This document shows, one piece after another, positions 1,294 to 7,982 of a stretch of DNA of 64,000 bases. The notes beneath the pieces are model-generated. The model did not search any database. It worked only from the letters and a program-made list of their open reading frames with translations, and was not told where the DNA came from. Origin of the DNA: Candidatus Versatilivorator sp. (lineage in GTDB: Bacteria; Acidobacteriota; Terriglobia; Versatilivoradales; Versatilivoraceae); NCBI GenBank assembly GCA_965207735.1, contig OZ242296.1, forward strand, positions 608,001 through 672,000, written 5' to 3'. The first letter of the stretch is position 1; every line of letters begins with the position of its first letter. The position numbers and the translations under genes are program-made.

Positions 1294-2455
1294 CGGTGTG
1301 GCTCACCTCCCCTTGCACAATGGTGGTATGCACCTGAAGGTTCCGGTCCAGAAGCACCATGTCGGCGTCGTGACCCGCGGCCAGGGTTCCCTTGCCGGCG
1401 GCCATCCCCAGCGATTGGGCCGGATTGCGGGTGAGCATGCCCAGCACGGTTTGCACCGGTAGACCGCTCCACCGGACGATGTTCCGCAGGGCCTGGTCCT
1501 GGGTCAGAATGCTGCCCGCCAACGTGCCGTCCGCCGTTCGACAGATACCATCCGAAAGCGTGATTTCGGCATCGGCCAGCCGGTACCGTCCCTCGGGCAT
1601 GCCGGTGGCGCTGACGGCGTCGCTGATCAGAAGCATCCTGCCGGCTCCCCTGCACCGGAGACAAAGGTCGACCGCGGCAGGCGAGACGTGCACCCCGTCG
1701 GCAATGAGCTCGGCCCAGATCCGCGGGGTTGTCAGGACGGCGCCGAGAATTCCCGGGTCGCGATGGCCAAAGCCCCTCATGGCGTTGAACAGGTGGGTGG
1801 CATTGCCGGCGCCTATATCAATGGCTGCCATGGTTTCTTCCAGGGTGGCGTTGGAGTGGCCCAGAGAGACGACGACCCCTCTGGAACGGGCGAAGCGGAT
1901 CAGGTCCAGGCCACCCTCGACTTCCGGCGCCAGCGTGATCAGCTTGATCCGATTGCCGGAGCGGGCCAGCAACTGCTCGAGGATGAGTGTGGATGGGCGG
2001 CGGATGTGCTCGGCGGAATGAGCCCCCCGCTTTTCGGGATTGATGAAGGGACCTTCCAGGTGGAGCCCCAGCATGCGGGCGCCCGGCAGAGGTCGATCCA
2101 CCTGGCGTCCCAGGGCTTCTACGGCCTGCAGGGTCGCAATGGGAGAAGCCGTCACGGTCGTGGCCAGAAAGGAGGTGGTGCCGTGAGCGGCCAGAAAGCG
2201 AGAAATCGCCTCGAGAGCCTCGGGCGTGCCCTCCATCACATCTCGTCCTATCGCGCCGTGGATGTGGACATCGATGAACCCCGGAGCCAGCAGTTGTCGG
2301 GAGTGGTCCACCACCTCGAATTCGTCCCTGGAGAACCGCACCGCCGCCCGGCTCCCGACTTCCAGGATCTTGGGGCCTTCGACCAGAACCACCCCGTCCA
2401 GAATGACCCGATCGGGAGTCATGACCCTGCCGGCGATCACTGCCAGTCGCTTCAT
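1286..2455 (-). CDS. nagA: N-acetylglucosamine-6-phosphate deacetylase
   Basis: PGFIDVHIHG, HLEGPFIN, TLAPE, GHSNA, THLFNAM, DGVHV, LAGS motifs; overlaps murA start. Confidence 0.97.
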   Translation of the reverse strand: MKRLAVIAGRVMTPDRVILDGVVLVEGPKILEVGSRAAVRFSRDEFEVVDHSRQLLAPGFIDVHIHGAIGRDVMEGTPEALEAISRFLAAHGTTSFLATTVTASPIATLQAVEALGRQVDRPLPGARMLGLHLEGPFINPEKRGAHSAEHIRRPSTLILEQLLARSGNRIKLITLAPEVEGGLDLIRFARSRGVVVSLGHSNATLEETMAAIDIGAGNATHLFNAMRGFGHRDPGILGAVLTTPRIWAELIADGVHVSPAAVDLCLRCRGAGRMLLISDAVSATGMPEGRYRLADAEITLSDGICRTADGTLAGSILTQDQALRNIVRWSGLPVQTVLGMLTRNPAQSLGMAAGKGTLAAGHDADMVLLDRNLQVHTTIVQGEVSHTVG

Positions 2456-5286
2456 GTCCCCTCATTCCCTGCGATATCCGTTTGCATTATCTCCCATGAG
2501 TCCACCGCTTCGGCCACGGTGTCGGCGAGTTGACGGCGGGCCGACTGGATGGCGCTGTTGTTCCGGGAGGGATGGACCCGGTTGGTCAGGAAGACGATGA
2601 AGAGCCGGCGGGTGGGGTCGATCCACAACGAGGTGCCGGTAAACCCCGTATGGCCATAGGCCTGGGGCGACAGCCTGCTGCCGGCCGAGCTGCTGGGCGC
2701 AGGGGTGTCCCAGCCAAGGGCGCGACTACTCCCAGATGGCTGGGCCTGACGTTGGGTGAAGGTTTCCAGAGTGCTCGGCTTCACGATGCGGCGATGGTTG
2801 TAGACGCCGCCGTTGAGGAGAGCCTGGCAAAAGACTGCCAGGTCCGCCGCGGTGCCGAACAGGCCGGCGTGACCCGCCACACCACCCATGGCATAGGCAT
2901 TTTCGTCATGGACCTCGCCCCTCAGCAACCGTTTCCTCCAGGGGTCGACTTCCGTGGGAGCAATCCGAGGACTCCAGGCGGACGGGGGTTGAAAGCAGGT
3001 CCGGTGCATTCCCAGGGGTTTGAAGATCTGTTGTCGAGCCAGGTTGTCGAGGCTGTCTCCACAAGCTCTTTCCAGGACGGCCGCCAGCAGAATGAAGCCC
3101 AGGTCGCTGTAGAGGCTGTGGCTGCCCGGCTGGTACTCCAGGGGAGTTTCCAGAATCCGTCGCAGGACGTTTTCCTTTCCGCTGGCATGGGCGTAGAGAG
3201 GGAGGTGGGCCGGGAGCCCCGAGGTGTGGGCCAACAGATGCTTGAGGGCGACTTGCCGTTTTCCCCCCTCCCGAAATTCTGGAAAGTAGCGTCCGAGCCG
3301 GTCTTCCAGGTCGATTGCCCCGCCTTCGCAAGCCTGCATGGCCAGGGTGGCGGTGCACACCACCTTTGTGAGTGAGGCCAGGTCATAAACGGAACGTGGG
3401 TTTGCCGGGGGACTGGTCGAAGTGTAGTCCAGCCTGCCGTATCCTCGGCAAACCAGCAGCTTTTCCCGGTAGCCAACCGCCAGGGAGGCTCCCGGGAAGG
3501 CTTGCAGGTCGATGAAGCGGCGGACAAGCTGCTGAAGCCTGGTTCGCAGGCCCCGGATGTCCTGTCGGGGCCGGTCCAATGCGTCCGGACGGGCCTTTTC
3601 CAGGACCATCGGAAAGGCTTCCCGGCGGAGGCCGGCGCCCCCCGCGGCTACGCCGGGAATCGACACCGGCAGCCGGCCGGTCAGGGGAATTTCTCCAAAG
3701 AGCGCCCTGGCTGCCGCCCGCTGGGAAGTGGAAACGTGGCTGTAGGCGCAGAGATAGGTGGGGAAGAAGGAAAGCTGTCGAATCAGATAAGGGTCACCCA
3801 GGGAAATCAAGAGCGCAGAGGGCTTGAGCCGGACCAGCCCCTTCAACCAATCCGCCAGGCGGGCAGGCAGTCCCAGCCGGCCGGTCCCGGTCACCAGCGG
3901 AACATACAGAGCCACCACGCAGAGATCCGCTTTGCCGGCCCCGTCCTTGACCTGGTTCAGCAGGGCGGGAGTCGCTTCCGGGGAGAGACGATCCACTTCC
4001 AGGAGATCGAGTCGCGTCCTGAGGTGATCTTCCAGATCGTCGGCAGCACTAGGCGATGGCTTGGCGGAAACGATGATCAGATGTGCCGAGCGGATTCGAC
4101 GGACGTCCAGCGGCACCTGAGAGGGATCGTCTTTCACCAGGGTGACGGAAGCGTCGGCCAGCTGTTGGGCTTGACGGTGAAGTGAGGGAGCGTTCATTCG
4201 CCGAGCCAACTGCCCGAAGTCCACCGGCTTTCTTCGGTTCAGTCCCAGCCAGGCCTTGGCCTGCAGGATACGCTCGACCGATCGGTCCACACGGGCCTGG
4301 GACAGGCGGCCGGTCTTTACCGCCTCGAGCAGCGCGCTGAAGACGACCCGGGCATCGGGTGGATCCAACAGCACGTCAACACCGGCCTCCAGGGCCTGAA
4401 CAGCCGCTTCGCCGCTCCAGTACCCTCGAGTCAGCCCCTGCATCTTCATGGAGTCGGATACGATCAGACCCTGAAACCCCAGCTCGTTCCTCAAGACCCG
4501 TTCCAGTATCGCCGCCGAGAGCGAGGCCGGGCGACGGCGGTCTTTCTCCAGGGCCGGGACGGCGACGTGAGCCGTCATGACCGCCATGACGCCGGCGCCG
4601 ATCGCCTCCCGAAACGGAACCCATTCGATCCGCTCCAGGCGTGGACGCTGCAGGGGAATCACCGGCAGGGACAGGTGCGAATCCACCTCGGTGTCGCCGT
4701 GACCCGGAAAATGCTTGGCGGTCGCCAGCACCCGGGCCTGCTGGGCTCCGGCCACGAATGCCGCGCCCAAACGGCCCACCGTTTCAGGGTCCTCTCCGTA
4801 GGAGCGGATGTTGATGACCGGATTGGCCGGGTTGTTGTTGACATCCACCACTGGGGCAAAAATCCAGTTGACTCCCAGGGCGCGGGCTTCCTGGGCGGTG
4901 ATGCGCCCCTGCCGGTAAGCCCACCGCTCCGAGCGGGTGGCCCCCACGGCCATGTTCCAGGGCAGGGGAACGGTATGGCGAATACGGAAGGCGGCCCCCC
5001 GCTCGAAGTCGGATCCGATCAGCAGGGGAATCGGTGCCTGGGACTGCAGTCGGTCGATGAGGACGGCCGATTCGTAGATGTCTCCCTCGAAGAGTATGAA
5101 ACCGCCCATGCCCAGTTCTTGCGCCTGATGCCGCAACCGCTCGAATTCGTGGCTGGCTTCATTGAGGTGAATTCCACGGATGGCCGGCATGATGAGCTGG
5201 CCGAGCTTAGCCTCCAAAGGCAGTCGGTTTAAAGTGGATATAACCCAATTTTTACCAATGGTTTGGAATTGGAATAGTGAAGGCAT
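2452..5286 (-). CDS. GH3 beta-N-acetylglucosaminidase fused to a beta-lactamase-like serine hydrolase domain
   Basis: GH3 motifs (SDFERG, APVVDV, KHFPGHGDTEVDSH); C-terminal SxxK (LASLTK), YSD and HTGFTG motifs; GTGA/ATGA-type overlap with nagA. Confidence 0.92.
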   Translation of the reverse strand: MPSLFQFQTIGKNWVISTLNRLPLEAKLGQLIMPAIRGIHLNEASHEFERLRHQAQELGMGGFILFEGDIYESAVLIDRLQSQAPIPLLIGSDFERGAAFRIRHTVPLPWNMAVGATRSERWAYRQGRITAQEARALGVNWIFAPVVDVNNNPANPVINIRSYGEDPETVGRLGAAFVAGAQQARVLATAKHFPGHGDTEVDSHLSLPVIPLQRPRLERIEWVPFREAIGAGVMAVMTAHVAVPALEKDRRRPASLSAAILERVLRNELGFQGLIVSDSMKMQGLTRGYWSGEAAVQALEAGVDVLLDPPDARVVFSALLEAVKTGRLSQARVDRSVERILQAKAWLGLNRRKPVDFGQLARRMNAPSLHRQAQQLADASVTLVKDDPSQVPLDVRRIRSAHLIIVSAKPSPSAADDLEDHLRTRLDLLEVDRLSPEATPALLNQVKDGAGKADLCVVALYVPLVTGTGRLGLPARLADWLKGLVRLKPSALLISLGDPYLIRQLSFFPTYLCAYSHVSTSQRAAARALFGEIPLTGRLPVSIPGVAAGGAGLRREAFPMVLEKARPDALDRPRQDIRGLRTRLQQLVRRFIDLQAFPGASLAVGYREKLLVCRGYGRLDYTSTSPPANPRSVYDLASLTKVVCTATLAMQACEGGAIDLEDRLGRYFPEFREGGKRQVALKHLLAHTSGLPAHLPLYAHASGKENVLRRILETPLEYQPGSHSLYSDLGFILLAAVLERACGDSLDNLARQQIFKPLGMHRTCFQPPSAWSPRIAPTEVDPWRKRLLRGEVHDENAYAMGGVAGHAGLFGTAADLAVFCQALLNGGVYNHRRIVKPSTLETFTQRQAQPSGSSRALGWDTPAPSSSAGSRLSPQAYGHTGFTGTSLWIDPTRRLFIVFLTNRVHPSRNNSAIQSARRQLADTVAEAVDSWEIMQTDIAGNEGT

Positions 5287-5567
5287 GGACGAAGTCCTTG
5301 CAACTGCTTGGGACGAGGGAGAGTACGCCGCGCAGGCAATACCCGGTCGGAAGCGGCTCAGCAGCCGGACACGCTATTGGGTTCATCCCATTGTTTGGCC
5401 GGCTCAGGGTTCTTGCCTTCGCCGTGCCTGGAGAGAGAGCCGAGTCGGTGGAATCCACTACCTGTCGGAACGTTGCGTAATATGTTTGTTTTCAACGAGG
5501 TGACGTTCAGGCGCAGGATCTGTCGCTCAAAGAGCGGAATTATCTTGTCAATGCGGTAAAAAACCTC

Positions 5568-5595
5568 TTGACATGCGGTATATATATGTTAGTCT
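5568..5595 (+). promoter_or_regulatory. sigma70-like promoter
   Basis: TTGACA (5568-5573), 16-bp spacer, extended -10 TGn-TAGTCT (5587-5595) in an AT-rich patch of a GC-rich genome. Confidence 0.65.
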
Positions 5596-5602
5596 TTCTT
5601 TC

Positions 5603-6107
5603 AAACAGCCCCTGGACGGGAAGCCTCCTGAATGTGTTCACCCCGGAGAGGGTCCCAAACAGCAAGGCTGCCAGACAAAGGGTGGTCTCAAGGCTGCCCT
5701 TTGGCCACCAGAACGGTTGATCGCGATAGATTGCGGCACCGGGCCGGTGGCGAGAATTCTAGTGCAAAGGAGGCATTTGGGCAATCCTCACGGTCGTAAT
5801 CCTCACGGTCGTAATCGCCCCAATGCCGGCATGGATGATTCGGGAATTGCGAGGCCGGGAGAGGTGGAAGGCCTGTCAGCCTGCTGGTTCAGGCAATCCT
5901 CTCCAGGCACTCAAAGGTGTGGACGGGCAGGCGTGGAGAGGGAGACACGCTTGCTTTTCCGCTATCCCCCTCTCAGCGCGCGGGGAGGGGGTGCTTTGAG
6001 TGGAGTCCAAGAGTGAATCGCATTTCCGACCGGGTCGCTGGTTCCTGATCAAGACCGGGATACCAGGAGGCTCGGAGTGTTGGAACATCCCGTTCAGCCT
6101 GAAGGCT
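5603..6107 (+). ncRNA. candidate large structured non-coding RNA (~500 nt), family not recognised
   Basis: Nested end-to-end helices (5612-5621/6088-6097; 5622-5630/6064-6072; 5631-5641/6013-6024) and many internal hairpins with G-U pairs that work only on the + strand; follows the promoter; no credible ORF. Confidence 0.6.
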
Positions 6108-7500
6108 AGCTCTTGTTCCCCCCCCAGGGACCGGTGATGGCCAGGGTGATGCCCGGATTCTGGATGTTGGCAAAGAGGGTGGTTCCGTCGGGGGAAAAGG
6201 TCGAACCGGCAAACTCGGAGTTGTTGAAGACGTTGCGGCCGAGCTTGTAGAGGTCGCCCCGAGGAGTGACGCCGACCAGGAATTGCTCGTTCGGTCCATC
6301 CTCACAAAGGATCAGGTCTCCCCAGGGCGCCACCGTCAGGTTGTCGGCGTTCTCGACCAGGTTGCCGTCGTTGGGCTCGATGAAAAGTTCCAGTCTGCCC
6401 GGGCTGTTCTTCTCGCCGGGTTTTCCTTCCGCAGGACCGGGGGCGTAGCGCCACACCTGCCCCTTCTTGTTCAGACCGCCGTTGGTGCAGACAAAATAGA
6501 CCCATCCCTTGTCCCACCACATGCCTTCTCCCCTGGCGAAGCGGGCCGCACCCAGATCCTCGAATCCCCGATAGCGCAGGTCGTCGTCGGGGGACTCGAC
6601 CTCGTCGATTTCGACCCACTCCACCTCGAAAACATGTCCCGGCAGCACTTTGCGCGCATTCCAGTTTCGGGTGTCCAGACCGGGCTTGTCCTTCACTTTC
6701 AACACCTGCAGGCGTCCGCCCGCTGCCAGGTTTCCGGGCTGGTCGGGGATGAACCGATAGAGCAGTCCATCGCCCCGGTCCTCCGTTTCGTAGACGATTC
6801 CGGAATTGGGGTCGACGGCGACCGCTTCATGCACGAAGCGTCCCATGGCTTTCAGGGGAACGGCGAGAGTCAACCCGACTTCGCTGCTGGCCGGCACTTC
6901 GAAGTTGTAGCCGTGGTCCCTGGTGTAGAGTCCTTCCTCCTTTTGAATCGTCTCCTCGCAGGTAATCCAGCTTCCCCAGGGAGTCGGTCCTCCCGCACAG
7001 TTGCGAACCGTTCCGCCCAGGCTCAGGAAGTGCTTTTCCAGGCGCATCTCGCGGGTGTTGTAGACCACGGTGGTGGTTCCTCCCAGGCAGGCCCTCCTCC
7101 CACGGCCGGCGTCATACAATTTTTGCCGGTCTGCGTTCCTGAGCGACTGGTTGATGGGGCCAAAGGCTCCGATGGTCTGGTGATCGATGCCCAGCTCGTG
7201 ATTCCGGACCAGAATCGTGCTGCCTGCCGGACCCGGAAAGGCAGCCATCCCGTCATGCAGACCCGGAACTCTGTAGCCATCGTCCATCAACTCTCCCACT
7301 TTGGACAAGATCCGATAAGTGAAACCCGCGGGGAGTTCAATTACTCCCTCCGGATCCGATTGCAAGTCCCCATAGCCTGCCGGAGCATTCGGTTTGGAAG
7401 TGGGCCTTGAAAACCCGTTGCCGGTAAGGGAACGAAGCCCCAGAAAGCCCATGGTGCAGGCCCCGGACGCTTTCAGAAACGATCGTCGTGAGGAATTCAT
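6106..7500 (-). CDS. phoX: PhoX-family (DUF839) alkaline phosphatase, Tat-exported
   Basis: Tat signal MNSSRRSFLK; LVRNHE, NCAGGPTPWGSWITCEE, MGRFVHEA, FARGEG, EFAG motifs; start moved to ATG at 7500. Confidence 0.9.
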   Translation of the reverse strand: MNSSRRSFLKASGACTMGFLGLRSLTGNGFSRPTSKPNAPAGYGDLQSDPEGVIELPAGFTYRILSKVGELMDDGYRVPGLHDGMAAFPGPAGSTILVRNHELGIDHQTIGAFGPINQSLRNADRQKLYDAGRGRRACLGGTTTVVYNTREMRLEKHFLSLGGTVRNCAGGPTPWGSWITCEETIQKEEGLYTRDHGYNFEVPASSEVGLTLAVPLKAMGRFVHEAVAVDPNSGIVYETEDRGDGLLYRFIPDQPGNLAAGGRLQVLKVKDKPGLDTRNWNARKVLPGHVFEVEWVEIDEVESPDDDLRYRGFEDLGAARFARGEGMWWDKGWVYFVCTNGGLNKKGQVWRYAPGPAEGKPGEKNSPGRLELFIEPNDGNLVENADNLTVAPWGDLILCEDGPNEQFLVGVTPRGDLYKLGRNVFNNSEFAGSTFSPDGTTLFANIQNPGITLAITGPWGGNKS

Positions 7501-7982
7501 TTCGGTCTGCCTTTCTTGGGAGACGCCCGGCGCCGGTTCGTCAGAATCGCCGGTTCGATGCCCAGGTTCGTAGGGCGCTACCCTGATCTTCATTGATTCC
7601 GCGATGGGCTTGTATGTTAACAAGAACCGCTGTGTCACTCGCGTAAATTTATCGTAAAGGGAATCCGGACGACCGACAAATCGAGAGAGGGATGCCATCT
7701 CAGGAATCCTTCCCGACCCGAATTGCGGCGCCCCGGGCGCCGACCAAAAAAGCCGTCCGGGGGCAGGCAACTGTGGTATTTTGGGGCGGCGTTCTTGCAG
7801 GCTTCGGAGCCGCCGGGCCACAGTCGGCGAACTCCGGCCGGGTGGCTGGCCTAAGGATAAAAAAGGTCTGATTTCAAGTCCTTATGAAGCGCATCTTTCG
7901 AGGCCTCCCGGACAGTATCGGGCAAGGCCATCCCCGAGAGCCATGAAGCGGGTCGGAACCCGCCGGCAGCGACATTCTTTCC

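Follow-up and report, generated by a model that had tools for sequence, protein, structure and literature searches.

Several described systems invite comparison with the intergenic element reported here. In the accessible part of its description, ROOL is an RNA of 581 nt with six junctions and three pseudoknots, found in three phyla (PMC5737381). An excerpted account of OLE and GOLLD takes switches from one palindromic loop to another as the mark of kissing loops (PMC12286853), and the dimer-initiation loop of HIV-1 is likewise given as palindromic in the available section of its source (PMC5767303). Among DNA repeats, REPs are located between convergent genes and influence the stability of mRNA, according to the portion of PMC3184786 that is accessible.

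The element lies in a 64-kb stretch of DNA analysed as a whole (the window), from a genome that we call G000. A preliminary description had given it about 500 nt and the size class of OLE and ROOL. Its conserved unit is ~390 nt, below the ~580 nt or more of a large ornate RNA and shorter than ROOL and GOLLD (581 and >800 nt in the excerpts of PMC5737381 and PMC12286853). Unlike these RNAs, it is found in one genus rather than several phyla, has no adjacent tRNA and matches no Rfam family; with a length of 280-390 nt and no supported junctions, it does not belong in their size class. It resembles OLE in having a predicted promoter of its own and in that the palindromic loop of its terminal hairpin (H7) could kiss symmetrically, like L9.3 in the partial account of OLE. 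However, it is smaller than OLE, again without an Rfam match, and its loop change counts as one event and has a simpler explanation.

With Hfq-type base-pairing sRNAs and sponges, the element shares a conserved promoter, a variable 5' part and an exposed, invariant segment close to a terminal hairpin, although it is longer than usual, has a weak U tail and yielded no conserved target. The GC-rich hairpins between convergent genes recall REP/BIME and CIR elements (PMC3184786 and PMC2229807, both in their accessible parts), and the two-arm-with-linker layout matches CIR by description only (excerpt of PMC2229807); in contrast to these repeats, the element is single copy, strongly conserved and equipped with a conserved promoter, and neither the H6 nor the H7 loop contains GANTC. 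As a chain of hairpins with 11-18 GGA per copy against 3-8 TCC it is also reminiscent of CsrB/RsmZ, but most GGA lie outside short hairpin loops and there is no Rfam match. A CsrA sponge was considered and rejected (0 matches to PF02599 in G000, with a positive control in 3/14 genomes). By analogy with what the excerpts of PMC2229807, PMC3184786 and PMC12990946 describe, the element would come closest to an sRNA of restricted lineage whose 3' hairpin is repeat-like. Our literature search, which took in few subscription papers, returned nothing on the genus or on Acidobacteria ncRNAs in sponge symbionts.

Extent, promoter and distribution

In G000 the element is flanked by a divergent gene with GH3 and beta-lactamase-fold domains (2452-5286, minus strand; PF00933 and PF00144) and a convergent phoX alkaline phosphatase gene (6106-7821 by ORF-finder bounds, minus strand; PF05787, E = 6.9e-84). 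It is preceded on the plus strand by a predicted sigma70-type promoter (5568-5595), noted in the preliminary description, which consists of TTGACA (5568-5573), a 16-bp spacer and an extended -10 element, TG-n-TAGTCT (TG at 5587-5588, TAGTCT at 5590-5595). The pattern is common to all 12 homologues: TTGAC(A/G), the 16-bp spacer, TG and TAnnnT are constant, while the middle letters of the -10 box vary. Retention of the outer letters with variation of the inner ones is the pattern expected of a sigma70 promoter. A consensus promoter scanner did not list the site, because its -10 box matches at only 3/6 positions. Across the 5.26-Mb genome the pattern occurs at 27 sites, of which 16 are near-identical copies of one repeat (e.g. 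C1 134412, 1605558 and 2260531), which is probably an IS end that brings its own promoter. It is by conservation alone (12/12) that the element has the promoter of its own expected of a base-pairing sRNA, and transcription would start near 5602.

The -35 box is flanked by a direct repeat, ATGCGGTA, on the plus strand (5551-5580), with copies at 5551-5558 and 5573-5580 that are 22 bp apart. Two TGCGGTA copies are present in 10/12 homologues; G009 has one mismatch, and in G011 the repeat is absent. No comparable repeat pair was seen at other promoters among 8 pattern matches in G000, and the repeats may represent an operator.

The candidate ncRNA body is ~390 nt long (5602-5997, plus strand). 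A DNA search found a homologous element, from the promoter to ~5997, in 12 of the 14 genomes of one Acidobacteria genus, G000 counted, so the homologues that the preliminary description had proposed looking for do exist. From the inferred start to the end of H7 these homologues measure 280-390 nt, and their last ~90 bases are strongly conserved. G013 lacks ~100 nt of the 5' part and is outside alignment A1 because of this deletion (G002 and G003 are outside A3), and G003 and G007 share a 24-nt deletion at the apex of hairpin H5. In G000, a profile search returned a single match, making the element single copy. Neither the DNA search nor a covariance model matched it in G001 and G005, both rated 100% complete, in which the locus is interrupted by insertion sequences. 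Being missing from these two genomes and confined to one genus, the element appears dispensable and of narrow reach.

No full-length homologue was found outside the genus among the genomes sampled. A covariance model built from the element's 3' 161 positions (R1) gave no match at E ≤ 0.01 in 17 other genomes of the family and none in 139 non-genus genomes of the class; of 149 further genomes of the phylum, two gave matches, all to multicopy repeats. The element used as a DNA query matched 0/400 genomes of the phylum. Phyla beyond Acidobacteriota were covered through exact patterns only. A pattern scan of metagenomes gave 22 matches, including two true homologues (L062 and L068) close to G000 and G002; the others were dismissed as chance matches or palindromic repeats. 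The element was unmatched in phage and plasmid records, and in viral contigs the strict pattern had no matches and the loose pattern four, all unrelated.

Rfam 15 at the gathering threshold reported only two tRNAs within the window. Relaxing the search to E ≤ 10 gave two matches in 5300-6200, far under threshold, and at E ≤ 0.5 nothing was found over the element in six homologue loci. The element belongs to no Rfam family, in keeping with the earlier suggestion that it might be undescribed, and from its sequence and distribution we regard it as an undescribed, genus-restricted candidate ncRNA of ~390 nt.

The 109 nt between the element and phoX (5997-6105) are a lineage-specific insert outside the conserved element, present in G000 and G002 and missing from 10/12 genomes. 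Compared with three close relatives, the insert shows 11, 10 and 13 differences over its 109 sites (10-12%), whereas the element differs from the same three at 3/396, 2/396 and 8/388 sites (0.5-2%). Positions 6019-6045 resemble one end of an IS/MITE that is multicopy in G000, and 6089-6099 weakly match the 3' end of ORF X, a gene of G011 described below (11 nt, E = 0.15). The insert was also considered as a duplicate or antisense copy of the element, and rejected, local alignment being no better than with shuffles. The IS/MITE has ends CCCGCATTTCTCACC and frequently a CTAG junction (e.g. C1 1211706, 2277151 and 2398424); one of its ends immediately precedes the RNase P RNA gene of G000 and overlaps that gene's likely promoter, and another lies at the phoX stop of G009.

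This insert bears directly on the architecture first proposed, in which the two ends of the region pair in nested helices. The 3' arms at 6013-6024, 6064-6072 and 6088-6097, and most of that at 5994-6002, lie inside the insert and hence in a segment held by only 2/12 genomes. Since 6064-6072 overlaps 6056-6066, two of the listed helices also partly exclude each other. Of the closing helices, which G002 and L062 keep mostly intact but which are broken in L068, two have high probability in a 505-nt fold. Pairing between the 5' domain and the insert gains -3.6 kcal/mol, which 33 of 300 shuffled inserts equalled, and the 505-nt fold lowers the probabilities of the conserved hairpins H4 and H5 to 0.06 and 0.24, from 0.94 and 0.98 without the insert. 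Because of the shuffles and this cost to H4 and H5, we treat the end-to-end helices as chance pairings and no part of the conserved element.

Hairpins, selective constraint and strand

Every strand that we located of the stems listed in the preliminary description lies where it had been placed, but the conserved consensus is a linear chain of hairpins and not the multi-junction fold envisaged. On the plus strand, the chain starts with a variable 5' domain closed by CAGCC/GGCTG (5606-5670), which shows no detectable constraint and is deleted in G013. It continues with the weakly constrained H2 (5676-5703) and H3 (5704-5751), H4 (5772-5827), and H5 (5851-5912) with its variable apex; in G000 and G002 the H4 loop contains 15 nt repeated exactly in tandem (5783-5812), a duplication of which L068 has lost part. 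H6 (5919-5962) has four G-U pairs and a 10-nt loop, GAGAGGGAGA (5936-5945), that is identical in all 11 homologues aligned and has its complement, CCCTCTC, in the H7 5' arm, a complementarity that is itself invariant. The terminal hairpin H7 (5966-5991), with the loop A-GCGCGC-G and a weak U tail, is present at the element in 12/12 carriers, the loop reading A-GCTAGC-G in G008 and G012.

Constraint increases toward the 3' end. On a fixed tree of 11 genomes, the length for four-fold sites of the neighbouring gene is 2.10, compared with 2.68 for the 5' domain, 1.63 for H2-H3, 1.40 for H4, 1.26 for H5 and 0.44 for H6-H7. A nine-genome clade without a same-strand downstream gene, which leaves out G009 and G011 by design, gives 1.21 for four-fold sites and 1.44, 0.83, 0.69, 0.51 and 0.22 for the same segments. 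Expressed relative to four-fold sites, the rate is 1.2-1.3x in the 5' domain (where the alignment is poor), 0.7-0.8x in H2-H3, ~0.6x in H4 and 0.4-0.6x in H5; H6-H7 evolves at ~0.2x the synonymous rate, and the 5' domain at or above it. The identity of H6-H7 to four relatives is 0.95, within the top 253 of 7969 windows, on a scale where non-coding windows average 0.79 and tRNAs reach 1.0. These comparisons support purifying selection on the element.

The region also folds more stably than expected from its composition, as the folding test suggested with the preliminary description required. Against dinucleotide shuffles, 5600-6107 has a z-score of -3.58 on the plus strand and -2.59 on the minus strand, and 5601-5997 one of -2.89; in a separate test the element (z -3.06) lay beyond 40/40 control windows of the 64 kb, the lowest of which was -2.6. 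The consensus fold was compared with column shuffles using 8 of the 11 rows. No shuffle out of 60 was as good for H5, on either strand, or for H6-H7, and H4 was marginal (2/60). H2-H3 (z -0.52) and the 5' domain (z -0.17) were not above shuffles, the 5' domain tests being weak ones made on sequence alignments. The proportion of paired cells is 90-92% in H2-H3, 98% in H6 and 97.1% in the 3' module as a whole (0/500 shuffles as good).

Covariation is modest in the 3' half and nil over the whole element. For the 3' module, shuffles did as well in 5/500 cases for further pair types, 2/500 for covariation and 11/500 for double-change pairs, with the tool's caveat that sequences that are related may outperform shuffles even if unstructured. 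Three pairs of H5 have changed on both sides, and H4 has one swap from U-A to C-G. Of the H6-H7 pairs, 17/24 never vary and are therefore uninformative on covariation, as is the pairing between the H6 loop and the H7 arm, since it is invariant. No covariation measure exceeded shuffles over the whole element (double changes, 277/500), nor did any multistem junction or pseudoknot have covariation support among the 11-12 sequences, a sample of low power.

Mismatches that are mostly G-U on the plus strand had been read as a sign of polarity. This holds in the 3' module, where the consensus energy of H6-H7 is -43.5 on the plus strand against -27.7 on the minus strand, but not over all nine helices, where 25 G-U and 18 A-C departures from Watson-Crick pairing do not differ significantly (p = 0.36), and H5 folds equally well on the minus strand. 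Departures number 7 G-U against 1 A-C in H4, and 10 to 1 in H4, H6 and H7 together, a subset picked afterwards.

Locus history and the origin of H7

What follows the element varies among carriers and is phoX, a DRT1 island or ORF X. In 7/12 genomes the phoX stop lies ~14 nt past H7; in some others phoX is 1.1 or 13.5 kb away and the element is kept. The larger distance is that of G009, in which an island of 13.5 kb carrying a DRT1 gene lies between the element and phoX. This gene (RT-nitrilase; PADLOC Drt1a, E = 2e-294), encoded on the opposite strand, directly follows the element (L043:3890-7051) and is split by a transposase gene; a similar C-terminal DRT1 piece lies beyond the element in G003 (L008:1-560). 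G005 has a 12-kb island in the nagZ-phoX interval, and with islands in both G009 and G005 this interval looks like an insertion hotspot. By eye, no duplicate of the element's 3' end that might mark an attachment site was seen at the phoX junction of either genome.

The layout of G011 differs, with a divergent CI-like HTH gene (PF07022; PHROG repressors) followed by the promoter, the element and, on the same strand, ORF X (L042:9505-10383). ORF X belongs to an unannotated family with 39 representatives of ~280-310 aa, which have hydrophobic N-termini and a conserved C-terminal WW motif. Sub-threshold SurA-N matches were found in 8 of 11 members scanned, and these are probably SurA-N-like, exported proteins. 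Remnants of ORF X adjoin phoX in G001 and G005, and remnants of the HTH gene occur in G001 and G009. The earlier argument that the convergent phoX precludes a 5' leader applies to G000 but not to G011, the one carrier of 12 with the same-strand downstream gene that a riboswitch or 5' leader calls for. Given this gene and the ORF X remnants in G001 and G005, the transcript may descend from the leader of a gene that once followed it and has since been lost by most lineages. In genomes without a same-strand gene the H6-H7 length remains 0.22 against 1.21, indicating that selection outlived that gene.

H7 appears to have a separate source. At E ≤ 0.001 the only extra-genus matches of R1 were multicopy palindromes, with 7 and 5 matches in G092 and G120. 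These repeats are triple palindromes that end in CCCCCTCTC-(C/A)GC-NN-GCGGAGAGGGGG, with a long hairpin before the end; H6-H7 has in common with them CCCCCTCTC-(C/A)GC-NN-GCGG-(A/G)GAGGGGG and the long hairpin ahead. H7 aligns with the multicopy units of both genomes, the central bases being free in the unit. The best match in G000 to a profile of 9 repeat copies was 5944-5991 (E = 0.004), a circular result because R1 had chosen the copies. H7 was probably captured from such a GC-rich palindromic repeat, judging from these shared motifs. Its pattern is found at one place per carrier genome, and not in the many copies typical of REP or CIR.

Other repeats were seen along the way. In G092 and G120 (L121-L129), the ~95-nt triple-palindrome repeat is multicopy and occurs between genes as well as in frame inside genes, and similar units are found in metagenome loci L054-L061. 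G000 carries at least 7 copies of a GC-rich hairpin family, GGGGAGG...CACCACCTCCCC (e.g. C1 638526, 645400, 1016009 and 4505803), two such hairpins being within the window at ~30526 and ~37400. At least 10 very long ORFs of G000 (up to ~4800 aa; e.g. C1 2015391-2028056 and 2144380-2158917) share a repeated segment near one end.

Possible functions and significance

We put the probability at about one half that the element is a dispensable, stand-alone RNA of the sRNA type that works through its 3' 150 nt. Transcription would be started by sigma70 near 5602, perhaps under the control of the ATGCGGTA repeats, and the 5' 250 nt would be a loosely constrained scaffold. H7 would set or protect the 3' end of the RNA, while H6 would show its invariant purine-rich, Shine-Dalgarno-like loop and act in trans on pyrimidine-rich RNA, as a seed or decoy, or on a protein. 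The loop could pair with the 16S tail (predicted anti-SD pairing, -9.6 kcal/mol) or with any CU-rich RNA, and pairing with the 5' arm of H7 could switch it off. Three Hfq matches over the cut-off, one strong and two weak, were found in G000 (C1:4756578, 377294 and 1483676). H7 is a 9-bp hairpin of -17.9 kcal/mol with the tail TGCTT, and was not called a terminator by the scanner. Its position 14 nt from the phoX stop in 7/12 genomes counts against an sRNA, as H7 may serve the phoX mRNA. At 390 nt, the element is also long for a base-pairing sRNA.

Candidate targets gave little. For glmS leaders in 5 genomes, predicted pairing energies were -11.5 to -16.0 kcal/mol, no better than background (median -15.3), and pairing with the nagZ leader reached -20.0 kcal/mol in G000 but fell below -17 in only 4/12 genomes. 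An exact-complement scan of G000 (with the 10-mer shifted one base) found 28 sites, most of them on the antisense strand of repeated coding domains. Neither the glmS, nagZ and phoX leaders nor these 28 exact matches in G000 included a convincing target. The element was also considered as a stand-in for RNase P, tmRNA, SRP or 6S RNA, hallmarks of which the preliminary description had rightly not seen in it; this was rejected, each of these genes being found elsewhere in G000. For an IscB trans-omega RNA, the RRXRR domain had no match, but its positive control had none either, so this negative carries no weight.

Several other explanations have to be weighed. The element could be an orphaned 5' leader or attenuator of ORF X, in which H7 terminates, the H6 loop anti-terminates and the RNA would live on as a residual transcript after loss of the gene. 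We consider this unlikely, though still a serious contender: G011 keeps all four components in order, lineages with ORF X or the HTH gene, or with the remnants seen in G001, G005 and G009, branch deepest on a midpoint-rooted tree, and the H6 loop and H7 arm are invariantly complementary. However, constraint is equally strong in the nine genomes without ORF X, the two full-length homologues of ORF X found in 401 genomes of the phylum lack such a leader, the gap upstream of them being short, and conservation is highest at the would-be expression platform. Riboswitches show the reverse pattern, the expression platform not being their conservation peak. In addition, the family alignment places the ORF X start ~125 nt past H7 and not at the TTG in H6. 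That TTG (5951) is the basis of one version of a coding explanation, a short peptide made from behind the Shine-Dalgarno-like loop; the other version is a protein from the 5573-6016 ORF, whose conservation the preliminary description had named as a refutation of an RNA. Both the TTG and the GGAG six bases ahead of it are invariant and the frame is open into ORF X in G011, but in G008 and G012 its tenth codon is a stop. The longer frame is broken by stops or frameshifts in most homologues, and its ATG falls inside the -35 box. With variable sites numbering 11, 11 and 7 by codon position (no third-position excess and no codon periodicity), no conserved reading frame and no Pfam match, coding is highly improbable.

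Alternatively, H6-H7 might be an exapted repeat, acting as a REP- or CIR-like barrier for the phoX mRNA or as a DNA-protein site, with the promoter and the preceding 250 nt unrelated to it. The multicopy palindromes that R1 matched outside the genus, and the fit of H6-H7 to the layout of the G092 and G120 repeats, speak for this explanation, which we nevertheless hold to be somewhat less likely than an orphaned leader. It leaves unexplained the conserved promoter, the rates of 0.4-0.7x four-fold sites in H4 and H5 and the G-U pairs in H6 that favour the plus strand; moreover, the H6 loop is invariant, unlike the variable loop of the repeat, and the element is kept where phoX is 1.1 or 13.5 kb distant. 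The orphaned leader, the exapted repeat and the sRNA overlap as history and are not fully exclusive.

Two further proposals turn on the H7 loop. GCGCGC and GCTAGC are both self-complementary, with duplex energies of -10.9 and -8.2 kcal/mol, and the loop sequence presumably resembles the dimer-initiation loop of HIV-1. A mobile palindromic repeat captured behind a strong promoter could thus have supplied a hexamer that dimerises the ~390-nt RNA, which would then present two Shine-Dalgarno-like loops; this idea, likened to retroviral dimer-initiation loops and OLE/GOLLD bridges, seems to us improbable. Slightly more doubtful still is an ornate RNA of the OLE/ROOL/GOLLD type, possibly self-associating through the H7 loop. 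A variable 5' half with a conserved 3' half is found in GOLLD too, and the change from GCGCGC to GCTAGC keeps the loop palindromic, like the kissing loops of OLE and GOLLD as far as the excerpted accounts describe them. However, the element tree groups G008 with G012 as sisters (72% support), so the change counts as one event, and the same two loop positions are free in the related repeat, where they read TT, GT, AC, AT or GA and are non-palindromic in 9/9 copies. The lack of a supported multistem junction and of whole-element covariation, the restriction to one genus and the 100-nt deletion in G013 also speak against an ornate RNA.

The stand-alone sRNA-type RNA that we favour would have limited reach: it is dispensable, occurs in a single genus and adds no new giant ornate RNA, and we know of no host for genetics in this genus. 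If transcribed, the element would nonetheless be an RNA family new to Rfam. Its relatives hold the presumed ancestral layout (G011), its decay (G001 and G005) and the RNA alone (nine genomes), and transcription would make this a datable birth of an RNA gene from a leader and a repeat hairpin.
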